DNA from: an uncultured Methanosarcinales archaeon
Lineage (GTDB): Archaea; Nanobdellota; Nanobdellia; Woesearchaeales; JAGVZT01
Assembly (NCBI GenBank): GCA_964354685.1
Contig: CAYHAM010000005.1
Location: forward strand, 9,942-73,941
Reading direction: 5' to 3'
DNA length: 64,000 nucleotides
Below are positions 802 to 44,511 of this stretch, piece after piece. A program made the position numbers and the translations under genes. Each line of letters begins with the position of its first letter. Positions within the stretch are counted from its first letter, which is position 1. The notes beneath the pieces were generated by a model, which was not told where the DNA came from, searched no databases, and was given only the letters and a program-made list of their open reading frames with translations.

Positions 802-2325
802 ATGAATAAGAAAAGAATAGTTCTAGGATTGGTGGCTTTGAGCCTAGTTTTTTTGTTGGCAGTTGGTGCAAGTGCTAGTTTTTTTGATGCGCTTGCTGAT
901 TTGTTTGGGATAAGATATGCGGCACCAGAGATTGTGAATATCTCTGTTTATCCACAGAAGGTGATGCCTGATAGTGTTATGCTGACAACTGTTGAGGTAG
1001 AAGATAAGTATGGTATTAGTGAGGCAATAGCAATTATACCTAATGAAAAGGGTTCTGACACAATAAAAATGCATTTGATTAGCGGCAGCTCTAAAAAGGG
1101 TGTTTATCAGTGCAGCTGGATTGAGCATGATGCAAAGAATGAGAAGTGGTATAATACAACAGTTATTGTTACAAATGTTAAAGGAATGAGCAGTGAAGCA
1201 AAGATTGAGTGGCAGGATCCAACAAAGAGTCATCCTGCAAGTGAGGTTACTGCTGGAACTTTTGATTCTGGGAATTTCAGTTTTCCTGACAGAGTTGGCA
1301 TAGGGACAACAAATCCTATAGCTAAGCTAGAGGTCAAAGATTCTGGAACCGGTGGATTATCCTTGAATGTGACTGGTGATTTGTATGTTAATGATACTGC
1401 TAACGGCGTAGGTATTGGAACAACAAATCCTGCTGGAGCACTTCAAGTTCTTGGTGATGAAGTTAGAATTGGAACCCCAACATGTTCGGATGCCTATTCA
1501 GCTGGTGACCTTTGTATGAATGGTTCTATTGAATCAGAAGGAGCAATTTTTGTGGGTGATATGTGGCACGTTGGTTCAAAATTAAGGATGGGTATGGATA
1601 CTATGTCAAGTAATCAAACTATTGTAGGCATCGCCACTAATGATGCTGGTGCAACCAATAGATATTACATAAAAATGTGGTCAGACGTTGATGGGACACT
1701 AGATGCAGAGTTTAGATTTGCAACTAATGGTACTGCCTATGCAGACGGCACGTGGCAGACAGGTGGAGCAGACCTAGCAGAAATATTTTATTTCCAGGAT
1801 ATCTCAGTTGAACAAGGTGATCTGGTTGCTTTTGTCGGAGAAGAAATCCTAGGTAAAAGTGGCGGCAAACCTTATGATTCGTCAATTGCTGGAGTAATCT
1901 CCACCAACCCAGGATTTTTGGGCGGAGTCAAAGAAGAAGAAGAAGAAAATCCTCATTTTAAACCTGTGGCTCTTATTGGTCGCGCACCGGTTAAAGTGAA
2001 TTTGGAAAATGGTCCAATTGAGGTTGGTGACCCACTGACATCTTCTTCTCAACCTGGAGTTGCAATGAAGGCAACCAAGCCTGGAATCATCATTGGAAAA
2101 GCATTGGAAAGCTTTGATGGGGAATGTAATGATTCAATTGTTGTTAAGCAGGAAGGAAAGGAATACAAGGTTTGTAAGATAATGACTTTTGTCAATGTTG
2201 GATATTGGGAGCCTGAAAACAATGATGATAGCAGTAAAGATATCAGTGAACTTGAGAATGAAGTTATGAAACTAAGGTATGAGGTTGCAATGTTGAGGAA
2301 AGAGTTGGCTGAAGTACAAAAGTAA
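802..2325 (+). CDS. Secreted protein with tail-fibre-like VGIGTTNP repeats and a C-terminal coiled coil
   Basis: N-terminal signal peptide (hydrophobic stretch, then ASAS). Two GIGTTNP..L.V repeats. C-terminal heptad region ELENEVMKLRYEVAMLRKELAEV. Confidence 0.5.
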   Translation: MNKKRIVLGLVALSLVFLLAVGASASFFDALADLFGIRYAAPEIVNISVYPQKVMPDSVMLTTVEVEDKYGISEAIAIIPNEKGSDTIKMHLISGSSKKGVYQCSWIEHDAKNEKWYNTTVIVTNVKGMSSEAKIEWQDPTKSHPASEVTAGTFDSGNFSFPDRVGIGTTNPIAKLEVKDSGTGGLSLNVTGDLYVNDTANGVGIGTTNPAGALQVLGDEVRIGTPTCSDAYSAGDLCMNGSIESEGAIFVGDMWHVGSKLRMGMDTMSSNQTIVGIATNDAGATNRYYIKMWSDVDGTLDAEFRFATNGTAYADGTWQTGGADLAEIFYFQDISVEQGDLVAFVGEEILGKSGGKPYDSSIAGVISTNPGFLGGVKEEEEENPHFKPVALIGRAPVKVNLENGPIEVGDPLTSSSQPGVAMKATKPGIIIGKALESFDGECNDSIVVKQEGKEYKVCKIMTFVNVGYWEPENNDDSSKDISELENEVMKLRYEVAMLRKELAEVQK

Positions 2326-5525: not shown

Positions 5526-5543
5526 AAAAAAAAGGTTGATAAA

Positions 5544-6242
5544 ATGGCTGAAGAGATTTCTAATAGAACATTGGCAATTATGTTGATTGTTGTTATGGCA
5601 ATATCTTTGGGAGGTACTATAATTAGCTTGAATAGGCTAACTCAATTGGGCTTTCCTGGTATAACAGGTGCTGCAACTGGCACAGGGACATCAACAGTGA
5701 ATATAACATCACAGGCATCGATAATTTTTCATGCTGGCAATAACACGGTTGCTTTTGGTAATGGATGGGTGAATAGCACAGAGAGCAGTGGAATTTGTGT
5801 TATGAGTGCTGTAAATAATAGTATTGGTACAATAAGTGCAGCTTGTAAAGGTAATTGGGCTGCTGGTAAGAGTGGGTTTATAATAGAAAACAATGGAAAC
5901 GTGAATCTTAGTGTTGAGGTTCATTCAGACAAAAACGCAACTGAGTTCTTAGGTGGTCAAACCTCTGGAACTAATAACATGAATTTCACTTTTAGGGCTT
6001 ACAACAATGAAACAGCATCATGCGCTTATATAAACGATAGTTGTAATAGTACTGTGTGGCTTGCTTGGCCAAGCGATGATGCAAAAACAGGGATTTGTAA
6101 TACCACTGGGGGTTTGGGTTATGATGACACTAAAGACTCAATGGTTATTGACCTTAACTTAAGCATAGACTACAGAACCAATAAAACTGGTAATGGTACT
6201 CAAACAGCAACAATAACAGCTACTGGTACTGCCCTTATTTAA
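5544..6242 (+). CDS. Secreted/surface paralog family protein (232 aa) with N-terminal signal-anchor
   Basis: About 85-90% identical to 6960..7661 and 9737..10441. Charged N-terminus, ~20-aa hydrophobic segment, many sequons. Ends TATITATGTAL. Confidence 0.55.
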   Translation: MAEEISNRTLAIMLIVVMAISLGGTIISLNRLTQLGFPGITGAATGTGTSTVNITSQASIIFHAGNNTVAFGNGWVNSTESSGICVMSAVNNSIGTISAACKGNWAAGKSGFIIENNGNVNLSVEVHSDKNATEFLGGQTSGTNNMNFTFRAYNNETASCAYINDSCNSTVWLAWPSDDAKTGICNTTGGLGYDDTKDSMVIDLNLSIDYRTNKTGNGTQTATITATGTALI

Positions 6243-6411
6243 CTAGATTTTTTTATATCTTTTTTTGTTTTTGGAAAAGAGAAAATGAGATTATTTTTTT
6301 CAATGTTATACTTACAAAAACTTATGCGGCTTGTTGTTCTTTTTATGAAACTTTAATAAAATTTAAACTTAGGTTGCTGATAGTCATTATTTTTTAATAT
6401 TATTATGATAA

Positions 6412-6461: not shown

Positions 6462-6700
6462 TTTTGTTTCTCTCTATACTCAAGGAGACAAGAAACCTTA
6501 GACCTTTACCCGCGGGTTAATTGAACGTGGTGTATAATTTGCACTGAATTATTTTAATAGTCTATATAACAGTCATTTGTAACCATTAAGGAATAAACAA
6601 CTGTTTTTTGTAAAGAATAATGGTTAATTAACAGAAAAATTTATATATGTAGTATATAATTGGTTTAAATTAGTATAAAAACAAAAAAAAGGTTGATAAT

Positions 6701-6955
6701 ATGGCTCAAGAGGATATTCCAAAAAGGGTGATTTTTGTTCTTTTGATTTTGACAATTGTTATTTCTGTTTTAGGAACTTGGACTGTTCTGGATGCTGTAA
6801 GCAGTGCCCAGCCAAGGGCTTTGCCAAGCACAGCACAGGGTAATGTTAATATTAACATTTTACCACCAAATTCTGGTCAACAAGAACCTGCAATACAAAA
6901 AGCTGAAGCTCAAGGTGTTGTGGGTTTAACAATTCTTGAACAAAAAGGAGGATGA
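6701..6955 (+). CDS. Small membrane-anchored/secreted protein (84 aa), present in two identical copies
   Basis: MAQEDIPKR, then a hydrophobic helix, then a Q/P-rich tail. Identical to 9478..9732. Confidence 0.45.
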   Translation: MAQEDIPKRVIFVLLILTIVISVLGTWTVLDAVSSAQPRALPSTAQGNVNINILPPNSGQQEPAIQKAEAQGVVGLTILEQKGG

Positions 6956-6959
6956 TAGA

Positions 6960-7661
6960 ATGGCTGAAGAGATCTCAAATAGAACATTAGCTATTTTGTT
7001 GATTGTTGCAATTGCAATATCTTTGGGAGGCACGATAATTAGCTTGAATAGACTGACACAAATGGGTTTTCCTGGTATAACAGGTGCTGCACAAACTGAT
7101 ACAGGGACAGCAACTGTTAACATAACATCACAGGCATCGATAATCTTTCATGCTGGCAATAACACGGTTGCTTTTGGTAGTGGATGGGTGAATAGCACAG
7201 AGAGTAGTGGAATTTGTGTTATGAGTGCTATAAATTCTAGTGATGGTACAGTAAATTCGGCTTGTAAAGGTAGTTGGGCTGCTGGTTTGAGCGGATTTAT
7301 AATAGAAAACAATGGAAACGTGAATCTTACTGTTGAGGTTCATTCAGATAAAAACTCAACTGAGTTCTTAGGTGGTCAAACTTCTGGAACTAATAACATG
7401 GCTTTCACTTTTATGGCTTACAATAATGAATCAGCATCATGTACTAGTTTGAACATTACTTGTGATAATGAGTGGTTTGCTTGGCCAGATAATGATGCAA
7501 AAACAGGTATTTGTAATTCCACTACTGGTGGCTTGGGTTATGATGACACTAAAGACTCAATGGTTATTGACCTTAACTTAAGTATAGACTACAGAACCAA
7601 TAAAACTGGTAACGGCACTCAAACAGCAACAATAACTGCTACTGGTACTGCCCTTACTTAA
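6960..7661 (+). CDS. Secreted/surface paralog family protein; start probably the internal ATG (track ORF 6936 uses an alternative start)
   Basis: Alignment with 5544 places the start at MAEEISNRT. Confidence 0.55.
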   Translation: MAEEISNRTLAILLIVAIAISLGGTIISLNRLTQMGFPGITGAAQTDTGTATVNITSQASIIFHAGNNTVAFGSGWVNSTESSGICVMSAINSSDGTVNSACKGSWAAGLSGFIIENNGNVNLTVEVHSDKNSTEFLGGQTSGTNNMAFTFMAYNNESASCTSLNITCDNEWFAWPDNDAKTGICNSTTGGLGYDDTKDSMVIDLNLSIDYRTNKTGNGTQTATITATGTALT

Positions 7662-7703
7662 CTAGATTTTTTTATATCTTTTTTGTTATTTGGAAAAGAG
7701 AAA

Positions 7704-8855
7704 ATGAGATTATTTAAGAGTTTAGGGTTCTTTGTTGTTTTGGGAGTATTTTTTATTTTTGTTAGCCCATTTGCCTTGGGAGTGAGTATACAGCCTGCTA
7801 AGTATAGCATCAACTTTGAGCCCAATCTTGAAAAAGATTTTGGTTTTTACATTTGTGGTGCTGCTAAAATCGAGACTTATCTTGATGGAGATTTAGTAAA
7901 ATATGCAACAATCATAGATAATGAACCAAATAGCAGTTGTAGGGATATTGTTGTAAGAGTAAGATTGCCTAATAAAATAGAAAAGCCTGGTAAAAACATA
8001 TTGTTGGTTGGTGCCAAGGAATTGATAGAGGTTGGTAGTGGGGTGGCTGGCCGTGCTGCTATACAAGCACCAATTGTTATATTTGTTCCCTATCCTGGGA
8101 TGTATGTTGAATGGAATTTTGTAGCACCAAATGTGAATGAGGGCGAAACTGTGCATTTTATTGTATCTGTCAGCAACCTTGGAACTAATAACATCCAAAG
8201 CGCAAGGGCTATAATAGATGTTTATGATGATAACTCAAAAATAAAAAGTCTTAATACAGATGAAAAATCAATACCATCAAAAGAAAGCGCAGAGTTTCCT
8301 CTGGATATGGAAACAACAGGAATGAAGGCTGGTTCTTACAGGGTTGTTACAACCTTGTATTATGATGGGAGATCTGATTTAAAGGAGAAGTCTTTTAACA
8401 TAGGAAGCTTGTATGTGGCAATAAACAATTACACCAAGGTTCTAGAGCAAGGCAAGATCAATAAAGTTGGTATTGAGATTGAGAGTAAATGGAATAACAA
8501 TTTACAGGATGTTTATAGTGCGGTAACTATAAATGGTGTTAAGGTTAAAACACCAAACTATGACCTAAAGGCATGGGAGACAAAAGAGATAGCTGCTTAT
8601 TACGACACAACTGGAATGGACATCGGAGAGTATGATGCACAAATAACCTTGTATTATGGGGGAAAAACAACAACTGAAGAGGGAAAGGTTTATGTTGTTG
8701 AGCAGAGTGAAGTGCAAAGCTCTGAGGCAAAAGAGGAAAAACCATGGAATATAAGTTTTAATATAACACCAACTACCCTCTTAGTAGCTATAATTATTAT
8801 ATTGGTTGTTGTTGACATTGTGTGGTTGATTATAAGAAGGAAAAATAAAAGGTAG
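7704..8855 (+). CDS. Surface protein with signal peptide and C-terminal TM anchor (paralog of 4117..5316); start likely ATG at 7704 rather than TTG at 7683
   Basis: MRLFKSLGFF signal. C-terminal TM plus RRKNKR tail. Confidence 0.5.
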   Translation: MRLFKSLGFFVVLGVFFIFVSPFALGVSIQPAKYSINFEPNLEKDFGFYICGAAKIETYLDGDLVKYATIIDNEPNSSCRDIVVRVRLPNKIEKPGKNILLVGAKELIEVGSGVAGRAAIQAPIVIFVPYPGMYVEWNFVAPNVNEGETVHFIVSVSNLGTNNIQSARAIIDVYDDNSKIKSLNTDEKSIPSKESAEFPLDMETTGMKAGSYRVVTTLYYDGRSDLKEKSFNIGSLYVAINNYTKVLEQGKINKVGIEIESKWNNNLQDVYSAVTINGVKVKTPNYDLKAWETKEIAAYYDTTGMDIGEYDAQITLYYGGKTTTEEGKVYVVEQSEVQSSEAKEEKPWNISFNITPTTLLVAIIIILVVVDIVWLIIRRKNKR

Positions 8856-9281: not shown

Positions 9282-9477
9282 TCTTATTATATTATTAATT
9301 CACTGATTTATATTAATAAAATTAATACTATCATTTTTATTGAGGGATATTAGTTGTAACTATTTAGGAATAAACAACAATGTTTTGTAAGAAACAAGGG
9401 TTAATTAACAGAAAAATTTATATATGTAGTATATAATTGGTTTAAATTAGTATAAAAACAAAAAAAAGGTTGATAAT

Positions 9478-9732
9478 ATGGCTCAAGAGGATATTCCAAA
9501 AAGGGTGATTTTTGTTCTTTTGATTTTGACAATTGTTATTTCTGTTTTAGGAACTTGGACTGTTCTGGATGCTGTAAGCAGTGCCCAGCCAAGGGCTTTG
9601 CCAAGCACAGCACAGGGTAATGTTAATATTAACATTTTACCACCAAATTCTGGTCAACAAGAACCTGCAATACAAAAAGCTGAAGCTCAAGGTGTTGTGG
9701 GTTTAACAATTCTTGAACAAAAAGGAGGATGA
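9478..9732 (+). CDS. Small membrane-anchored protein (84 aa), identical copy of 6701..6955
   Basis: 100% identity. Confidence 0.45.
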   Translation: MAQEDIPKRVIFVLLILTIVISVLGTWTVLDAVSSAQPRALPSTAQGNVNINILPPNSGQQEPAIQKAEAQGVVGLTILEQKGG

Positions 9733-9736
9733 TAGA

Positions 9737-10441
9737 ATGGCTGAAGAGATCTCAAATAGAACATTGGCTATTTTGTTGATTGTTGCGATTGCAATATCTT
9801 TGGGAGGCACGATAATTAGCTTGAACAGACTGGCACAGGTGCGTGTTCCTACTATAACAGCTGCTGCATTAACAGACACAGGGACAGCAACTGTAAATAT
9901 AACATCTCAGGCATCGATAATTTTTCATGCTGGCAATAACTCGATTGCTTTTGGTAGTGGATGGGTGAATAGCACAGAAAGCAGTGGAATTTGTGTTATG
10001 AGTGCTATAAATTCTAGTGATGGTACAGTAAATTCAGCTTGTAAAGGTAGTTGGGCTGCTGGTTTAAGTGGGTTTATAATAGAAAACAATGGAAACGTGA
10101 ATCTTACTGTTGAGGTTCATTCAGACAAAAACTCAACTGAGTTTTTGGGAAATCAAACTTCTGGAACTAATAACATGAATTTCACTTTTATGGCTTACAA
10201 CAATGAAACAGCATCATGCGGTCAATTGAACGCTAGTTGTGATGATGAGTGGCTTGCTTGGCCAAATGGGGATGCAAAAACAGGAATATGCTTTAATACA
10301 TCTAATGGTGGCTTGGGTTTTGATGACACTAAAGACTCAATGGTTATTGACATTAACTTGAGTATAGACTATAGAACCGTTCTCACTGGTAATGGTACTC
10401 AAACAGCAACAATAACTGCTACTGGTACTGCCCTTACTTAA
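9737..10441 (+). CDS. Secreted/surface paralog family protein (third copy)
   Basis: Paralog of 5544 and 6960. Confidence 0.55.
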   Translation: MAEEISNRTLAILLIVAIAISLGGTIISLNRLAQVRVPTITAAALTDTGTATVNITSQASIIFHAGNNSIAFGSGWVNSTESSGICVMSAINSSDGTVNSACKGSWAAGLSGFIIENNGNVNLTVEVHSDKNSTEFLGNQTSGTNNMNFTFMAYNNETASCGQLNASCDDEWLAWPNGDAKTGICFNTSNGGLGFDDTKDSMVIDINLSIDYRTVLTGNGTQTATITATGTALT

Positions 10442-10601
10442 CTAGATTTTTTTATATCTTTTTTGTTTTTGGAAAAGAGAAAATGAGGTTATTTAAGGAT
10501 TTATTTCTATTATTAAAATTATGATTAGTAAGTTGCTATAAAACTAGCTAATATTATCTTCTATTAATATAATGATATTAATAACAAAATTTTTAATGAT
10601 A

Positions 10602-22996: not shown

Positions 22997-24142
22997 TCAG
23001 CTATCTCTAAAGTAATTTATCTGATTAACAGCATATATGAACAATCCAGAGCTCCATGCAAAGGGGTGTTCTGATTTGTATCTGGATCTTTTAACTGGTT
23101 TTCCATTTTGTTCGTATATTTCGTAGACACCATTGTGTCTTACTATGAGTTCTGCAATTTGGTTTAGTAGTTCTATAGCTTGTTTTCTCATTCCAATTTT
23201 GTTTTTTGCAACTGCATCTAAGCATCCAAGCCATAACCAGCTTAGACCATTGTGATAGTCTCCTATCCCTCCTATGTAATTGATTAGGCTAATTTTGGTA
23301 AAGGGGTATTTAGGATAATTTGTTTTAGAGGGTATGTGTTGATTTATCCTAAATTCTTGAATAGCCTTTTGGATTTTTAATTGTTGATTTTTGTTTGCAA
23401 TATCAAATAGTATGGCTAAAATGTTTCCATCTGTTGAAAAATAATCATATCCTTTCTTGTCTATCCAGTCTATGTAATAGTCCTGTTTCCAGAACAAATC
23501 ATTTATTTTTTGTTTAACATCTCTATGTAAATCTAAATAATGTTTGGAATCCTCTTTTTTTCCAATGGTTTTACACATGTCTGAAAATTCTCTTAGTGCT
23601 TCACAATGTAAAATATTTGTGTAGAGTACTTTTCCACTTTTTTTGATTGAGTCTGTCCATGCTGCGTAATGCTCTTCTTCTATTAAAAGGTCGTTATCTG
23701 TATCACGGGTTAGGTTCCATTGCATAGCCTTTTTCAGATTTGGGAAATATTTTTTTAGGAATTCTTTGTCTTTGGTTGTTTTGAGGTAGTTGTAGAATAA
23801 GATTACAAACAAAGAGTTTTGGTCAGTTGAGGTGTGGAAGAATTTGTCTTCGGTATACCTTGCTCTCATCTTCTGCACAGGTCTTATTCCGAATAATTTT
23901 AAAGCAATAAAGTAGTCACCTATTCGAAGAGGTATTTGTCCTTGTTTGTTTTGGTATTTGATGAATAATTTTAGGTTTTTTTTAACTATGTCAAAGTCTT
24001 TTAGATAAAGGGCGCCAAGGCCTGCAAAAAAACCATCTCTGGCCCAGTAATCATCAAAGTGATGGGACCCAGCTAGGATACCATCTTTAGAATAGCAACT
24101 CCTAAGGTTGTTCTTGGCAATAGCATATGCTTTTTCTATCAT
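22997..24142 (-). CDS. Six-hairpin (alpha/alpha)6 glycoside hydrolase, GDE_C/GH63-like (putative amylo-1,6-glucosidase/glucoamylase-type)
   Basis: Motifs typical of GDE_C-like barrels: GSHHFDDYWARDG, HNGLSWLWL, AWTDS. Confidence 0.45.
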   Translation of the reverse strand: MIEKAYAIAKNNLRSCYSKDGILAGSHHFDDYWARDGFFAGLGALYLKDFDIVKKNLKLFIKYQNKQGQIPLRIGDYFIALKLFGIRPVQKMRARYTEDKFFHTSTDQNSLFVILFYNYLKTTKDKEFLKKYFPNLKKAMQWNLTRDTDNDLLIEEEHYAAWTDSIKKSGKVLYTNILHCEALREFSDMCKTIGKKEDSKHYLDLHRDVKQKINDLFWKQDYYIDWIDKKGYDYFSTDGNILAILFDIANKNQQLKIQKAIQEFRINQHIPSKTNYPKYPFTKISLINYIGGIGDYHNGLSWLWLGCLDAVAKNKIGMRKQAIELLNQIAELIVRHNGVYEIYEQNGKPVKRSRYKSEHPFAWSSGLFIYAVNQINYFRDS

Positions 24143-24316
24143 ACACAGTAAAGGAAACCTCTATCTTAAGGTTGAGGTATCCTTCCTCCTTTACTTTGTC
24201 AAGAACCAAAGGTTCTTGATCATGATCAGAATTTTCCTTATTTCCCTATACGAAGTGTAAGCCACCAGTCAGAGACTGAATGGAAAATTCTGACATTTCT
24301 GGGTTTCCTTTACTGG

Positions 24317-24363
24317 TCGACCTCCTCCCATGGAAACCCACAACTTCAGTTGTGGGAGGAGGT
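24317..24363 (-). terminator. Perfect 12-bp stem hairpin abutting the stop of the 24363..25373 gene
   Basis: GACCTCCTCCCA-N22-TGGGAGGAGGTC. Confidence 0.35.
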
Positions 24364-25373
24364 CATTTGGAGTTATTGACAAAGTCTCTCCTTATTGTTC
24401 TTATGTAGCTTGTTCCATGGTAGATGTAGAATATCACACCAGAGACTATCCACATAAAGTCACGAGTTCGTACTAGTAAAGATAATGCTACAGCAACTGC
24501 TGGTGGAATACCAACAAGGATAGCTATACCGATCTGGCTGAGTTCTAATACACCGATAGATGCTGGTATGGGAAACATCATTGCAAAGCCTGTCATTGTG
24601 ACAACAAGGTATATTTGAGCAAGGGAAGCGTTATAGCCTACTATCATTAAAGCTGTTTTGAATTCCAGAATCATTAAGAACCACAGCAAGCATGATATTA
24701 TCAATGCAACCAAGAATGCTTTTTTTCTGTGATTGAAAAATCTGATTAGGTTTGTTTCTGTTTCCATTATCTTCTTTTTAAATGGTTGTAATTTTTTTAT
24801 TCTGCCCAATTTCAATTTATCAAATAAAGGGGTGAAGAAATATTCTTTATGATACATTTTGTAATAAAATACTATTCCAATAAACACAAGGATTGCAATA
24901 ATAATCGCCAGAAATACTAGTAGTAGTTTTGGTAGATCAAGTGTGTGTACAACTAAGAAGAACATAACACAAGCAAGGAAGAAGTTCATTGGTAGCTCTA
25001 CTGCCCGGTCTATTATCACTGAGGATATTGCATCTGTTAGTGGAACTTTGTGTTTTTTTAGAAAAAATGCCCTAACGGTTTCTCCACCTATATAAAAAGA
25101 GGGTATTACATAACCCACTGCATATCCCATTTGCCTGTACATGAAGAGATTGTGGAAGGGGATTTTGAATCCAAGGGCGTTTAGGATTAGTTTCCATTTT
25201 ATTATGAGTACTGTTACAAGAGTTGCTGATATCATCAAATAGAATATTATATGAGTGGGTTGGATTGTTTTAAATTGATTGATAATTGCTTGGATACCAA
25301 TAAATTTGATAGTTATTACAAAAAGGACAATACCTACTAAAAGTGATCCTAAACCAAATATTATTTTCTTCAT
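24363..25373 (-). CDS. Polytopic membrane protein, UPF0104/flippase-like (LPG-synthase TM-region family)
   Basis: About 8 TM helices. Family assignment from length and profile is tentative. Confidence 0.35.
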   Translation of the reverse strand: MKKIIFGLGSLLVGIVLFVITIKFIGIQAIINQFKTIQPTHIIFYLMISATLVTVLIIKWKLILNALGFKIPFHNLFMYRQMGYAVGYVIPSFYIGGETVRAFFLKKHKVPLTDAISSVIIDRAVELPMNFFLACVMFFLVVHTLDLPKLLLVFLAIIIAILVFIGIVFYYKMYHKEYFFTPLFDKLKLGRIKKLQPFKKKIMETETNLIRFFNHRKKAFLVALIISCLLWFLMILEFKTALMIVGYNASLAQIYLVVTMTGFAMMFPIPASIGVLELSQIGIAILVGIPPAVAVALSLLVRTRDFMWIVSGVIFYIYHGTSYIRTIRRDFVNNSK

Positions 25374-26963: not shown

Positions 26964-27076
26964 AAAATGAAAAAGCCTCCGGAGGGAGTTGAACCCTCGA
27001 CCTGCGGATCACTTGCATAAGGGCTACAAGTTTCGGCTTTAGAAATCCGCCGCAATAGCCACTATGCTACGGAGGC
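26964..27076 (-). tRNA. tRNA-Arg (anticodon TCT) with a canonical-position intron (~30 nt)
   Basis: Reverse complement has GCCTCCG/CGGAGGC acceptor, GCGGA-TTTCTA-(intron)-A-TCCGC, and T-arm GAGGG-TTCAACT-CCCTC. Confidence 0.7.
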
Positions 27077-27323: not shown

Positions 27324-27929
27324 CTAACCAAACTTACGGTGTGGTTCCCACAAGAGCTCGCTTTCAGGTATGAACTTCTTCCTTTCTAGGAAGTTTTTGA
27401 TAACGCCTTGAAGGCGGTAAGCATCCTGTAGTAATAGCTCTTCTCTTTTTAGCATGTCTTCTTTAAATATTCTCTTTTGAAAGAAGGTGTTGAAGTGTTT
27501 TAATATTGGGTGCTTTGCCCACCTATCTTTGTAGTCATATTCTATCCAGGGTTTTATTGATATTGTTATTTCTCCATGTTGTGCCTTGTATTTTTCTCCC
27601 TCATGCATGACCTCAACATCTCTTGAACCTAACATCATAAAGTTAACGTTCATAAAATAGCGATAGTAACTGTTGCCTGTTGGCTTTTGCAGCCTCCACC
27701 ACACCCACAGCTTTTTATTACCAGGTGCGTGGTTGTCATATAATAAGGTTTCCTCGTACTCATCAGTTGTTGTTTCTTCCCAAGGGCCATTGCAGGGAAT
27801 CCAGCCCTCCTCGCGCCACCACGAGTGCATTGCAATGTAAAGGCTCTTTAAGTGAAAGACCTCTTGGTAAATCAGAACAAGATAATTGTGGGATTCTGGT
27901 TGAACATATATTCGGTTGTGATGGCTCAT
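27324..27929 (-). CDS. Hypothetical Trp/His-rich protein (201 aa) with locally elevated GC
   Basis: ORF only. Composition differs from its neighbours. Confidence 0.35.
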   Translation of the reverse strand: MSHHNRIYVQPESHNYLVLIYQEVFHLKSLYIAMHSWWREEGWIPCNGPWEETTTDEYEETLLYDNHAPGNKKLWVWWRLQKPTGNSYYRYFMNVNFMMLGSRDVEVMHEGEKYKAQHGEITISIKPWIEYDYKDRWAKHPILKHFNTFFQKRIFKEDMLKREELLLQDAYRLQGVIKNFLERKKFIPESELLWEPHRKFG

Positions 27930-30329: not shown

Positions 30330-30413
30330 CGCCCCGGGCCAGGTTTGAACTGGCGACCTTGCGGTTTCTAGGCAAGCTAACAGCCGCACGCTCCACCACT
30401 AAGCTACCGGGGC
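30330..30413 (-). tRNA. tRNA-Asn (anticodon GTT) with a 12-nt intron at 37/38
   Basis: GCCCCGG/CCGGGGC acceptor. TGCGG-CTGTTA(intron)A-CCGCA. T-arm GCCAG-TTCAAAC-CTGGC. Confidence 0.65.
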
Positions 30414-43275: not shown

Positions 43276-44511
43276 TTGGATTATAAAATGAAACGTCTGA
43301 AACGTCCAAAACTCTCTTTTTTGGAAAGAGCAGGAATGGCTTTGTCAGCTGGATTTTTTTGTTTTGGTATATTTTATTGTGGGTTGGAATTGTATAAAGC
43401 AAGACCAGTTTCAGCACAAATCGACAAAACACCTACTCCGACTGTTAGTTTTGAAAGAACACCAACTCCAGATTTTCCTCTTCCTAGCCCTACTTATCCT
43501 GCTGATCCTACATCAACAAGCATAATAACACCAACTCCTACTATAACCCAAGAGAGTATAGATGATGTTGTTGAGCCTCCTACTCCAACACCTACAGTTT
43601 TAACTTTAGATCAAGCAAATGTTTCACAAATACCTGATTTAGGTATGGGTACAGAGGTTCAAAATGCTTACTGTAAGATAATTGTTCCAAGGAGTGTTCT
43701 TATTAATCCAACCTTAGCTGATTGGCCAAATCATGTTTTCAAATATCAACATATGCAGCCTGGTTGGATAGTTGATATTGATAGATTGCATATTGAAGAG
43801 GGTCAGAGGTTTTGTGAAGGAGATTATAGGATTTGGGCAAGGATAGATATCAAAAGTAATACAAATCAAGAGCTTGATCAAGGCTGGTTTTTGGTAAGGG
43901 ATAATGACGAGATATCTGCATTGTGTGGGAAGTGGTTGGTAGAAGGGGAAGACTTACAACAACGTGTTAATCAATATCTAGCAAATCATTCTGGGCTTAG
44001 CAGTTTTGATTATAATAGAAATGGTACCTATACTATCCATTTTAGAAATCAGGAAGAGGCTCTTTTGTGGACTTATATTTTATCAGAGGGTAATTATGAT
44101 CCAAGTATACAGGCTTTACCACAACCATTTATGCAACAACAGTATGATTTGGCTGATGGAGCTATATTGAATGTGTTACAAAATGACATGGAACTTCACA
44201 ATGATACAGTTGTTGCAAGGCTTGCTTCTGGCAGGTATTATGGTGTTTTATATGGTGACCCTTTCAATAATTTATACATACAATCATTGAATCATCCATG
44301 GGATATTACAGTTAGTGCAGCAAGTATTAGCCCAGAGCGTGCTGAAAGGGTGAGGGCAATAATTTCAATTGAACCCCAGGTAATTCCAGATGGTCTCTAT
44401 ATTTACATTATTAATCCGAAATATGATCACGTTAATATGCCTGAGGTACTTAATTTACTAAGAGCGCTTTTGGAAGGACCAATAGGACTGCATTGCTATG
44501 GTAGTGCTTGA
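43276..44511 (+). CDS. Membrane-anchored extracellular protein with Pro/Thr-rich linker (411 aa)
   Basis: N-terminal TM. TPTPT.. linker. Confidence 0.35.
   Translation: MDYKMKRLKRPKLSFLERAGMALSAGFFCFGIFYCGLELYKARPVSAQIDKTPTPTVSFERTPTPDFPLPSPTYPADPTSTSIITPTPTITQESIDDVVEPPTPTPTVLTLDQANVSQIPDLGMGTEVQNAYCKIIVPRSVLINPTLADWPNHVFKYQHMQPGWIVDIDRLHIEEGQRFCEGDYRIWARIDIKSNTNQELDQGWFLVRDNDEISALCGKWLVEGEDLQQRVNQYLANHSGLSSFDYNRNGTYTIHFRNQEEALLWTYILSEGNYDPSIQALPQPFMQQQYDLADGAILNVLQNDMELHNDTVVARLASGRYYGVLYGDPFNNLYIQSLNHPWDITVSAASISPERAERVRAIISIEPQVIPDGLYIYIINPKYDHVNMPEVLNLLRALLEGPIGLHCYGSA

Follow-up and report, generated by a model that had tools for sequence, protein, structure and literature searches.

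What is the heavily base-paired spacer of 220 nt (24143-24362) that separates two minus-strand genes on contig CAYHAM010000005.1, from an uncultured archaeon of the Woesearchaeales? The initial annotation of this contig's analysed 64,000 nt (hereafter, the window) considered the spacer too rich in nested helices for a simple terminator and proposed a structured RNA, either a missing housekeeping RNA or a novel small RNA (sRNA). We found that the spacer and one extra TCAT (ATGA on the minus strand) together form a piece of inserted DNA of 224 nt. We interpreted it, with a probability of about 0.85, as a nonautonomous element of the IS200/IS605 family, that is, a palindrome-associated transposable element (PATE) that has the ends of the family and lacks tnpA and tnpB.

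The insertion was revealed by comparison with relatives. The two flanking genes that the initial annotation had noticed encode an LPG_synthase_TM family membrane protein and a GH116/GDE-like glycosidase. By these proteins, the window is assigned to Woesearchaeota (DPANN). The three closest homologues of the glycosidase protein (71%, 62% and 60% identical) are all located on locally syntenic contigs, where LPG_synthase_TM is followed by the glycosidase and then by VWA and DUF58 genes on the opposite strand. In all three, the open reading frames (ORFs) of LPG_synthase_TM and the glycosidase overlap (by 4 nt, and by 20 nt in one of them) and there is no spacer. The empty site of one relative, L005, is AAAATGATA, with a single ATGA. 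It reads ...AAT AAC ACA AAA TGA, overlapping ATG ATA AAA AAG GCT, and the minus strand of the window reads ...AAT AAC TCC AAA TGA, then the 220 nt, then ATG ATA GAA AAA GCA. The insertion point is exactly within the ATGA stop/start overlap, both ORFs remain intact, and a TCAT is found on the plus strand at each boundary (Table 1). Two more distant relatives (L001 and L002, 50-54% identical) did not keep the synteny and were uninformative on the insertion. The inserted DNA has a GC content of 42.7%, against 35.4% for the window. It contains no long ORF; the ORFs touching it are spurious and, at 50 aa or less, too short for a transposase. An exact look-up of the proteins of the window gave only a Logan contig from ERR3804374 (L004, 1078 nt), which encodes an identical LPG_synthase_TM protein and stops 24 nt inside the right end of the element (1055-1078). 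The assembly may break here because coverage is low, because strains differ in having the insertion, or because of a repeat.

The ends of the inserted DNA have the organization of an IS200/IS605 element. In IS608, the transposase TnpA binds two subterminal hairpins, the left and right imperfect palindromes (IP_L and IP_R), on the top strand, and no target is duplicated. Guides of 4 nt immediately 5′ of the hairpin feet read the cleavage tetranucleotides: the left cleavage site (C_L) TTAC is 19 nt 5′ of IP_L, the right one (C_R) TCAA is 10 nt 3′ of IP_R, and the left and right guides (G_L and G_R) are AAAG and GAAT (PMC3201880, PMC5934647). The plan of the window element is TCAT, 15 nt, GAAA, IP_L (CCTCTATC-TTAA-GGTTGAGG), and, at the other end, GAAA, IP_R (CCCACAAC-TTCA-GTTGTGGG), AGGAGG, TCAT. 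Both hairpins are on the same strand, each preceded by GGAAA. The foot of IP_L is 15 nt from the left end of the element, and C_R ends 10 nt 3′ of the foot of IP_R. The termini of the inserted DNA, ACACAGTAAAGG... on the left and ...GGAGGAGGTCAT on the right, do not complement each other. There is thus no terminal inverted repeat, and the 14-bp repeat is internal.

Homologues of the right end were found beside transposon genes. When the region was searched against plasmids with BLAST, only its last ~35 nt, GGAAACCCACAACTTCAGTTGTGGGAGGAGGTCA (24332-24366), were matched, in four haloarchaeal plasmids, and these matches carry a compensated change in the right-end hairpin. The covariance-model match of the window right end was 61.9 bits. 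At three loci (L031, L030 and L039), 15-18 nt separate the motif from an annotated tnpB gene upstream of it. It was observed 15 nt after an annotated TnpB gene in Halorubrum salinarum pHAR01, 18 nt after a 451-aa "transposase" in Halobellus and 16 nt after another TnpB in Halorubrum sp. PV6, and it follows TnpB fragments in Natribaculum and Haloterrigena (L028 and L038). Pfam (OrfB_IS605, Cas12f1-like_TNB) and the NCBIfam model guided_TnpB (200 and 144 bits) confirmed the neighbouring proteins. A scan with a degenerate motif revealed a bacterial-like IMG/VR contig, L032, in which the motif is ~150 nt downstream of tnpA (Y1_Tnp, E 3e-36) and a divergent TnpB-like gene. As the motif adjoins tnpB, or tnpA and a tnpB-like gene, it represents the right end (RE) of IS200/IS605-family elements. 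Upstream of the last ~35 nt, we did not find similarity between the window element and the tnpB-proximal regions of L028-L032.

The TnpB-like protein of L032 (864-2378, minus strand; 504 aa), whose gene adjoins tnpA, had no Pfam match and matched guided_TnpB with an E value of 9e-17 and 61 bits, below the curated cut-off of 100. Despite sharing the conserved right-end motif, it belongs to a divergent lineage of TnpB. By eye, it seemed to be without the zinc-ribbon cysteines. In its haloarchaeal version, the motif was counted at 286 places in 114 plasmids of haloarchaea, with up to 17 in one (Natribaculum breve plasmid CP095391), and some of these places have no tnpB nearby. In L037 (Natronomonas pharaonis PL131, match at 2001-2039) and L040 (Halapricum, match at 2001-2041), the motif is in gaps of ~300-430 nt that have no tnpB annotation, and it probably marks PATE-like or terminal-only copies. 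The motif was not found in the Haloquadratum supplements.

Gene-less copies of the element itself were also found. A metagenome scan with the GAAA...TCAT variant gave three contigs (L034, L035 and L036), with ~35% GC and archaeal genes. L034, from a different organism and locus, contains a 124-nt version of the element, LE (left end) and RE identical, without window positions 24200-24299. It shares with the window copy the left end, the sequence at the junction of LE and pre-RE, and the long-range stem. It is also inserted exactly in the ATGA overlap of two minus-strand genes (...ATA TGA / ATG AAA AAG). In L035 and L036, a related element of 134 nt is present as two near-identical copies, the flanks of which are unrelated. 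The LE and RE hairpins of these copies are alike (same-strand covariance-model matches), as is usual for the IS200/IS605 family. Their left flank is TTTA and their right end is TCAT. TCAT therefore belongs to the element, and no target was duplicated. In L036, the element (1665-1798, minus strand), 3′ of TTTA, splits the TAA stop of a 183-aa ORF (1134-1685, plus strand), which is lengthened by six codons (MTSSHN) into the right end of the element.

The alignments showed covariation. In a right-end alignment of ten sequences, all hairpin cells were paired (100%), and two pairs were altered on both sides (AA/TT, GA/TC, GG/CC, CC/GG). Among the distinct rows, the guide and cleavage tetranucleotides were GAAT/TCAA in six sequences and GAAA/TCAT in three. 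Their fourth bases always pair and switch together, from T:A to A:T. The pair GAAT/TCAA, which IS608 also has, was found in the haloarchaeal copies and L032, and GAAA/TCAT in the window and its close relatives. These right-end changes are exactly the pairs that the IS608 mechanism predicts. When the four mini-elements (window, L034, L035 and L036) were compared, 96% of the cells paired and nine pairs were altered on both sides. Five of the nine are in IP_L (of its eight pairs), three in the long stem between LE and pre-RE, which is the 14-bp stem kept in L035 and L036 with compensatory pairs, and one (C:G to A:T in L035 and L036) in the outer stem over IP_R. Since the long helices are conserved in sister copies, they are family features, and since they overlap the guide and hairpin sites, they must alternate with those sites.

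The base pairing itself is as strong as the initial annotation had suggested: all the complements it listed are present, with coordinates shifted by +1, and the folding z-scores are about -7 on both strands. The minimum free energy as RNA was -85 kcal/mol on the plus strand (z = -7.75) and -87.7 kcal/mol on the minus strand (z = -6.78), and the single-stranded DNA fold had a z of -7.61. None of 200 shuffled sequences folded as well in any of the three cases. G-U pairs were few on either strand (5/78 and 3/80), and the two strands folded equally well. Such strand-symmetric, nearly pure Watson-Crick helices point to palindromes at the DNA level and are unexpected for an RNA gene read from one strand.

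This symmetry bears on the idea of a cellular structured RNA gene, be it the signal recognition particle (SRP) RNA, RNase P RNA, another housekeeping or regulatory sRNA, or a riboswitch or leader of the glycosidase gene. The strong folding and the elevated GC content would fit such a gene, and we found no SRP or RNase P RNA elsewhere in the window. However, a search of the 64 kb with Rfam 15 at the gathering threshold gave only two tRNAs. Even at E<=10, the 601 nt at 23950-24550 gave only chance-level matches below threshold, such as sRNA154 and mir-4477, and none from SRP or RNase P. The single-copy conservation of SRP and RNase P RNA is not seen here: the closest relatives lack the spacer at the syntenic locus, their genes overlapping there, and the only homologues of the spacer are transposon-like copies. 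With transposon signatures at both ends as well, an RNA gene is hardly credible, and the proposal of a housekeeping RNA was abandoned. The novel sRNA survives only as a possible scaffold of a TnpB guide RNA; otherwise, the helices are transposon hairpins and palindromes. A hammerhead-like CUGAUCA, look-alikes of the RNase P regions CR-I and CR-V and a CRISPR-repeat-like GTTTCC...GGAAAC were by-eye resemblances that had no model support.

We also considered a locally evolved transcription terminator or an intercistronic hairpin that stabilizes the mRNA. The 12-bp hairpin begins where the upstream gene has its stop codon, and, should the operon be read through, the bottom (mRNA) strand would fold into a very stable structure between the cistrons (-93 kcal/mol). 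However, the initial annotation was right to doubt a simple terminator, as we found no terminator-like site and no T-run in the spacer. The ancestral, translationally coupled overlap needs no terminator, and the same sequence occurs at unrelated loci, which makes this explanation very improbable. Any effect on the operon, possibly lost translational coupling or the stable intercistronic structure, would be a consequence of the insertion and not its cause. A TATA-like TTAAGATA occurs ~20-27 nt before the glycosidase ATG. As L034 does not keep it, it is not claimed as a promoter.

Other kinds of transposon were weighed against a mobile IS200/IS605 mini-element. The perfect 14-bp inverted repeat, the identical TCAT on both sides and the size would suit a conventional miniature inverted-repeat transposable element (MITE) moved by a DDE transposase, with the 14-bp repeat as its terminal repeats and TCAT as a 4-bp target-site duplication. 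However, mapping against the empty site showed that 3 nt separate the repeat from the left end and 51 nt from the right end. Homologues of the right end are IS605-type right ends beside tnpB and tnpA, and in the sister copies the two sides do not match (TTTA on the left, TCAT on the right). A MITE can therefore scarcely be maintained.

An alternative closer to our interpretation is a terminal-only remnant of a full-length IS605 or IS1341 element, the core of which was deleted in place, so that the mini form never transposed. Core deletions that turned IS605-type elements into PATEs are documented in Haloquadratum (PMC3119063). The window copy is single in the 64 kb, and it has an extra internal block of 100 nt without a counterpart in L034. 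However, the architecture that L034 shares with the window copy in another organism and at another locus pointed to a common gene-less ancestor that moved, and L035 and L036 are near-identical gene-less copies in different flanks. In addition, the internal block contains no coding remnant and has no similarity to tnpB-proximal regions or to any of the collected loci. We consider a remnant unlikely, although less so than the explanations above. An imperfect inverted repeat (TGTCAAGAA ... TTCTGACA) borders the internal block, inside which the sequence TCATGA gives a TCAT on each strand. The block may be a small nested element comparable to SMR-A, a repeat that targets the PATEs of Haloquadratum; alternatively, L034 may have arisen by deletion.

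Several points weigh against a mobile IS200/IS605 mini-element. As the element has a TCAT at its own right end, the TCAT on both sides of the window copy, taken alone, is indistinguishable from a target duplication of 4 bp; the argument against duplication rests on L035 and L036. The covariation comes from two Woesearchaeota-like subfamilies, haloarchaea and one bacterial-like contig, so it represents few independent events. The sequence of IP_L in the window is unlike that of IP_R, and the right-end covariance model does not detect it. No second copy was found in the 64 kb by mismatch pattern search, sensitive blastn, fuzzy regular expressions or the covariance model with filters off. The window also gave no homologue of TnpA or TnpB, in a search that consisted of tblastn with two haloarchaeal TnpB proteins and of Pfam on 12 ORFs of 272-411 aa (every TnpB-sized one), so current mobility in the host is putative. 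The element would have to be transcribed, and a TnpB partner encoded elsewhere, for any role as guide RNA.

Some further searches were negative. Scanning viral contigs with the 14-bp arm gave only single-arm matches, mostly of one recurring unrelated sequence (the element would give two), and BLAST against phages gave nothing meaningful. Two protein searches with translations of the element, seeking spurious ORFs over other copies, returned nothing. Three ORFs of the window, 7683-8855 (plus strand; 390 aa), 43276-44511 (plus strand; 411 aa) and 27324-27929 (minus strand; 201 aa), matched no Pfam family at E<=0.001.

By analogy with IS608, we propose the following mechanism. On single-stranded DNA, a Y1 (HUH) transposase TnpA, which would be encoded elsewhere in the host genome, would bind IP_L and IP_R. 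The GAAA 5′ of each hairpin foot would pair with the TCAT cleavage site, in the left flank on one side and at the element end on the other. The top strand would then be excised in circular form and integrate 3′ of a further TCAT, with no duplication of the target. The TCAT hit here would have been the plus-strand reading of the ATGA in which the stop and start codons of two co-directional genes overlap. As TCAT also ends the element, its insertion would have regenerated the upstream TGA stop and the downstream ATG, leaving both ORFs intact. The stem between LE and pre-RE and the outer stem probably serve as a scaffold like that of omegaRNA, also called right-end element RNA (reRNA), for a TnpB acting in trans, or as a conformer that masks the TnpA sites. 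In the IS200/IS605 family, the top strand lies on the lagging-strand template. The plus-strand GC skew is positive around 24 kb and agrees with such an orientation, although this is weak evidence in an archaeal metagenome-assembled genome.

Both of the two TCAT-type copies (window and L034) are in ATGA overlaps. Among the TCAT sites of the window, those in ATGA overlaps make up only 6 of 699, or 6 of ~58 when non-disruptive sites are considered. With n = 2, a preference for such overlaps is no more than suggestive. In the reRNA model of ISDra2, the scaffold ends at the right end of the transposon, the guide comes from the adjacent flank, and the transposon-associated motif (TAM) is the TnpA target (PMC8612924). 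If the window element follows this model, a plus-strand transcript of its right part would end in the guide TTGGAGTTATTGACAA, which is antisense to the 3′ end of the LPG_synthase_TM gene, and, with TCAT as TAM, it would target the vacated junction. A broader scheme can be drawn from these points, in which IS200/IS605 mini-elements of DPANN archaea have TCAT both as left target and as right terminus, insert without a scar at translationally coupled ATGA junctions, where stop and start codon are both restored and which would be a safe-haven niche in tiny, gene-dense genomes, and encode an omegaRNA with which a TnpB encoded elsewhere re-targets the vacated junction. We offer this scheme tentatively and consider it rather doubtful as a whole.

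Table 1. Positions in the window of the inserted element, its predicted functional sites, its helices and the flanking genes
Feature	Position	Strand	Remark
Whole inserted element, PATE-like	24143-24366	+ (top strand)	224 nt; precise relative to syntenic relatives
Target / left cleavage tetranucleotide TCAT (C_L), in flank	24139-24142	+	minus-strand ATGA holds the glycosidase ATG; same TCAT/ACACAG junction in L034
Left guide tetranucleotide GAAA (G_L)	24154-24157	+	the 4 nt 5′ of the IP_L foot; sequence and position as right-end guide
IP_L	24158-24177	+	8-bp stem (one T:T, one T:G), 4-nt loop; aligns with IP_L of L034, L035 and L036
Long-range stem, perfect 14 bp: CAGTAAAGGAAACC with GGTTTCCTTTACTG	24146-24159 / 24302-24315		
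5′ arm of 14-bp long-range stem	24146-24159	+	overlaps G_L and first 2 nt of IP_L
3′ arm of 14-bp long-range stem	24302-24315	+	
Internal 100-nt block	24200-24299	+	lacking in the 124-nt copy L034; includes hairpin 24199-24219, palindrome 24217-24228 and hairpin 24226-24293
9-bp hairpin: TCAAGAACC with GGTTCTTGA	24199-24207 / 24211-24219		
Palindrome TGATCATGATCA	24217-24228		
12-bp stem: TCAGAATTTTCC with GGAAAATTCTGA	24226-24237 / 24282-24293		
Outer 12-bp stem: GACCTCCTCCCA with TGGGAGGAGGTC	24319-24330 / 24353-24364		
5′ arm of outer 12-bp stem	24319-24330	+	pairs with 24353-24364, so competes with IP_R
9-bp hairpin enclosed by outer stem	24337-24345 / 24348-24356		
Right guide tetranucleotide GAAA (G_R)	24333-24336	+	
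IP_R	24337-24356	+	8-bp stem, 4-nt loop; homologous to motif downstream of tnpB
Linker AGGAGG and right cleavage tetranucleotide TCAT (C_R, 24363-24366)	24357-24366	+	minus strand: TGA stop of LPG_synthase_TM gene
Flank expected to supply the 16-nt guide TTGGAGTTATTGACAA, were the right end transcribed as TnpB omegaRNA	24367-24382	+	predicted from reRNA architecture (PMC8612924)
Upstream flanking gene, LPG_synthase_TM family membrane protein	24363-25373	-	intact
Downstream flanking gene, GH116/GDE-like glycosidase	22997-24142	-	intact

Other features of the window were also noted. The 103-nt Rfam tRNA match at 26974-27076 (minus strand; 56.5 bits) was not called by ARAGORN and is probably an intron-containing archaeal tRNA. 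At 30330-30413 (minus strand), ARAGORN reported "tRNA-???" with a four-base anticodon (gtta), and Rfam matched 84 nt with 56.6 bits; this tRNA probably has an intron or an unusual anticodon loop. Three copies of ~0.8 kb (5526-6296, 6942-7715 and 9719-10495) are 83-94% identical, and a 300-nt pair (6577-6876 and 9354-9653) is 97% identical. These repeats look like a tandemly amplified family of paralogous genes.

Recognizing the spacer as an IS200/IS605-type element removes a false candidate for a "missing" housekeeping RNA from a DPANN genome. Such candidates can be recognized when the site is empty in relatives, each boundary carries a tetranucleotide, and guide, hairpin and cleavage site have the geometry described here. 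The kind of element is itself known, and the window copy is a well-preserved one; it is now documented in Woesearchaeota-like genomes, and its right-end motif is common to haloarchaeal plasmids, a bacterial-like IMG/VR contig and Woesearchaeota-like contigs, with compensatory changes. If the preference for ATGA junctions is true, it would represent a transposon design that spares compact genomes. If a TnpB partner exists, the element would provide a compact archaeal omegaRNA scaffold with a TCAT TAM.

Among known systems, the omegaRNA or reRNA of ISDra2 TnpB is fitted by position only, and the assignment of the scaffold in the window element is a putative one. We found no match to a described omegaRNA, by sequence or by covariance model, and no Rfam family at threshold. 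The haloarchaeal IS1341-type (tnpB-only) elements have a homologous right end of ~35 nt, GGAAT-CCCACNNC-TTCA-GNNGTGGG-AGGAGG-TCAA, immediately 3′ of tnpB and on the same strand. Unlike the window element, they carry tnpB and are GC-rich, and the similarity does not extend upstream of this right end.

PATEs are defined as gene-less elements with near-terminal palindromes related to IS605, without terminal inverted repeats or target duplication (PMC3119063). They are thought to derive from IS605-type elements through loss of the core, to be mobilized in trans and often to encode omegaRNAs for a TnpB encoded elsewhere (PMC3119063, PMC10055086). The literature searched contained no description of IS605 elements or PATEs in DPANN archaea. 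The window element resembles the PATEs of Haloquadratum walsbyi and the PATE-like elements of Geobacillus stearothermophilus in being gene-less, in having IS605-related palindromes near its ends and no terminal inverted repeats, and, to judge by L035 and L036, in not duplicating its target. It differs from them in its host (Woesearchaeota, DPANN), in occurring as single copies per contig, in having TCAT at both ends, and in the two independent insertions of window-type elements in ATGA gene overlaps.

IS608 of Helicobacter pylori provides the comparison for the ends. The window element differs from it in lacking tnpA and tnpB, in its archaeal host, in its left spacing (15 nt rather than 19 nt) and in using GAAA/TCAT at both ends, whereas IS608 uses AAAG/TTAC on the left and GAAT/TCAA on the right. 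The right-hand pair of IS608 is identical to that of the haloarchaeal and L032 relatives of the window right end. Like IS608, the window element has no terminal inverted repeats, carries subterminal hairpins on the same strand with guides 5′ of their feet, has a C_R that ends 10 nt 3′ of the foot of IP_R, and is inserted 3′ of a specific tetranucleotide, without duplication to judge by the sister copies L035 and L036.

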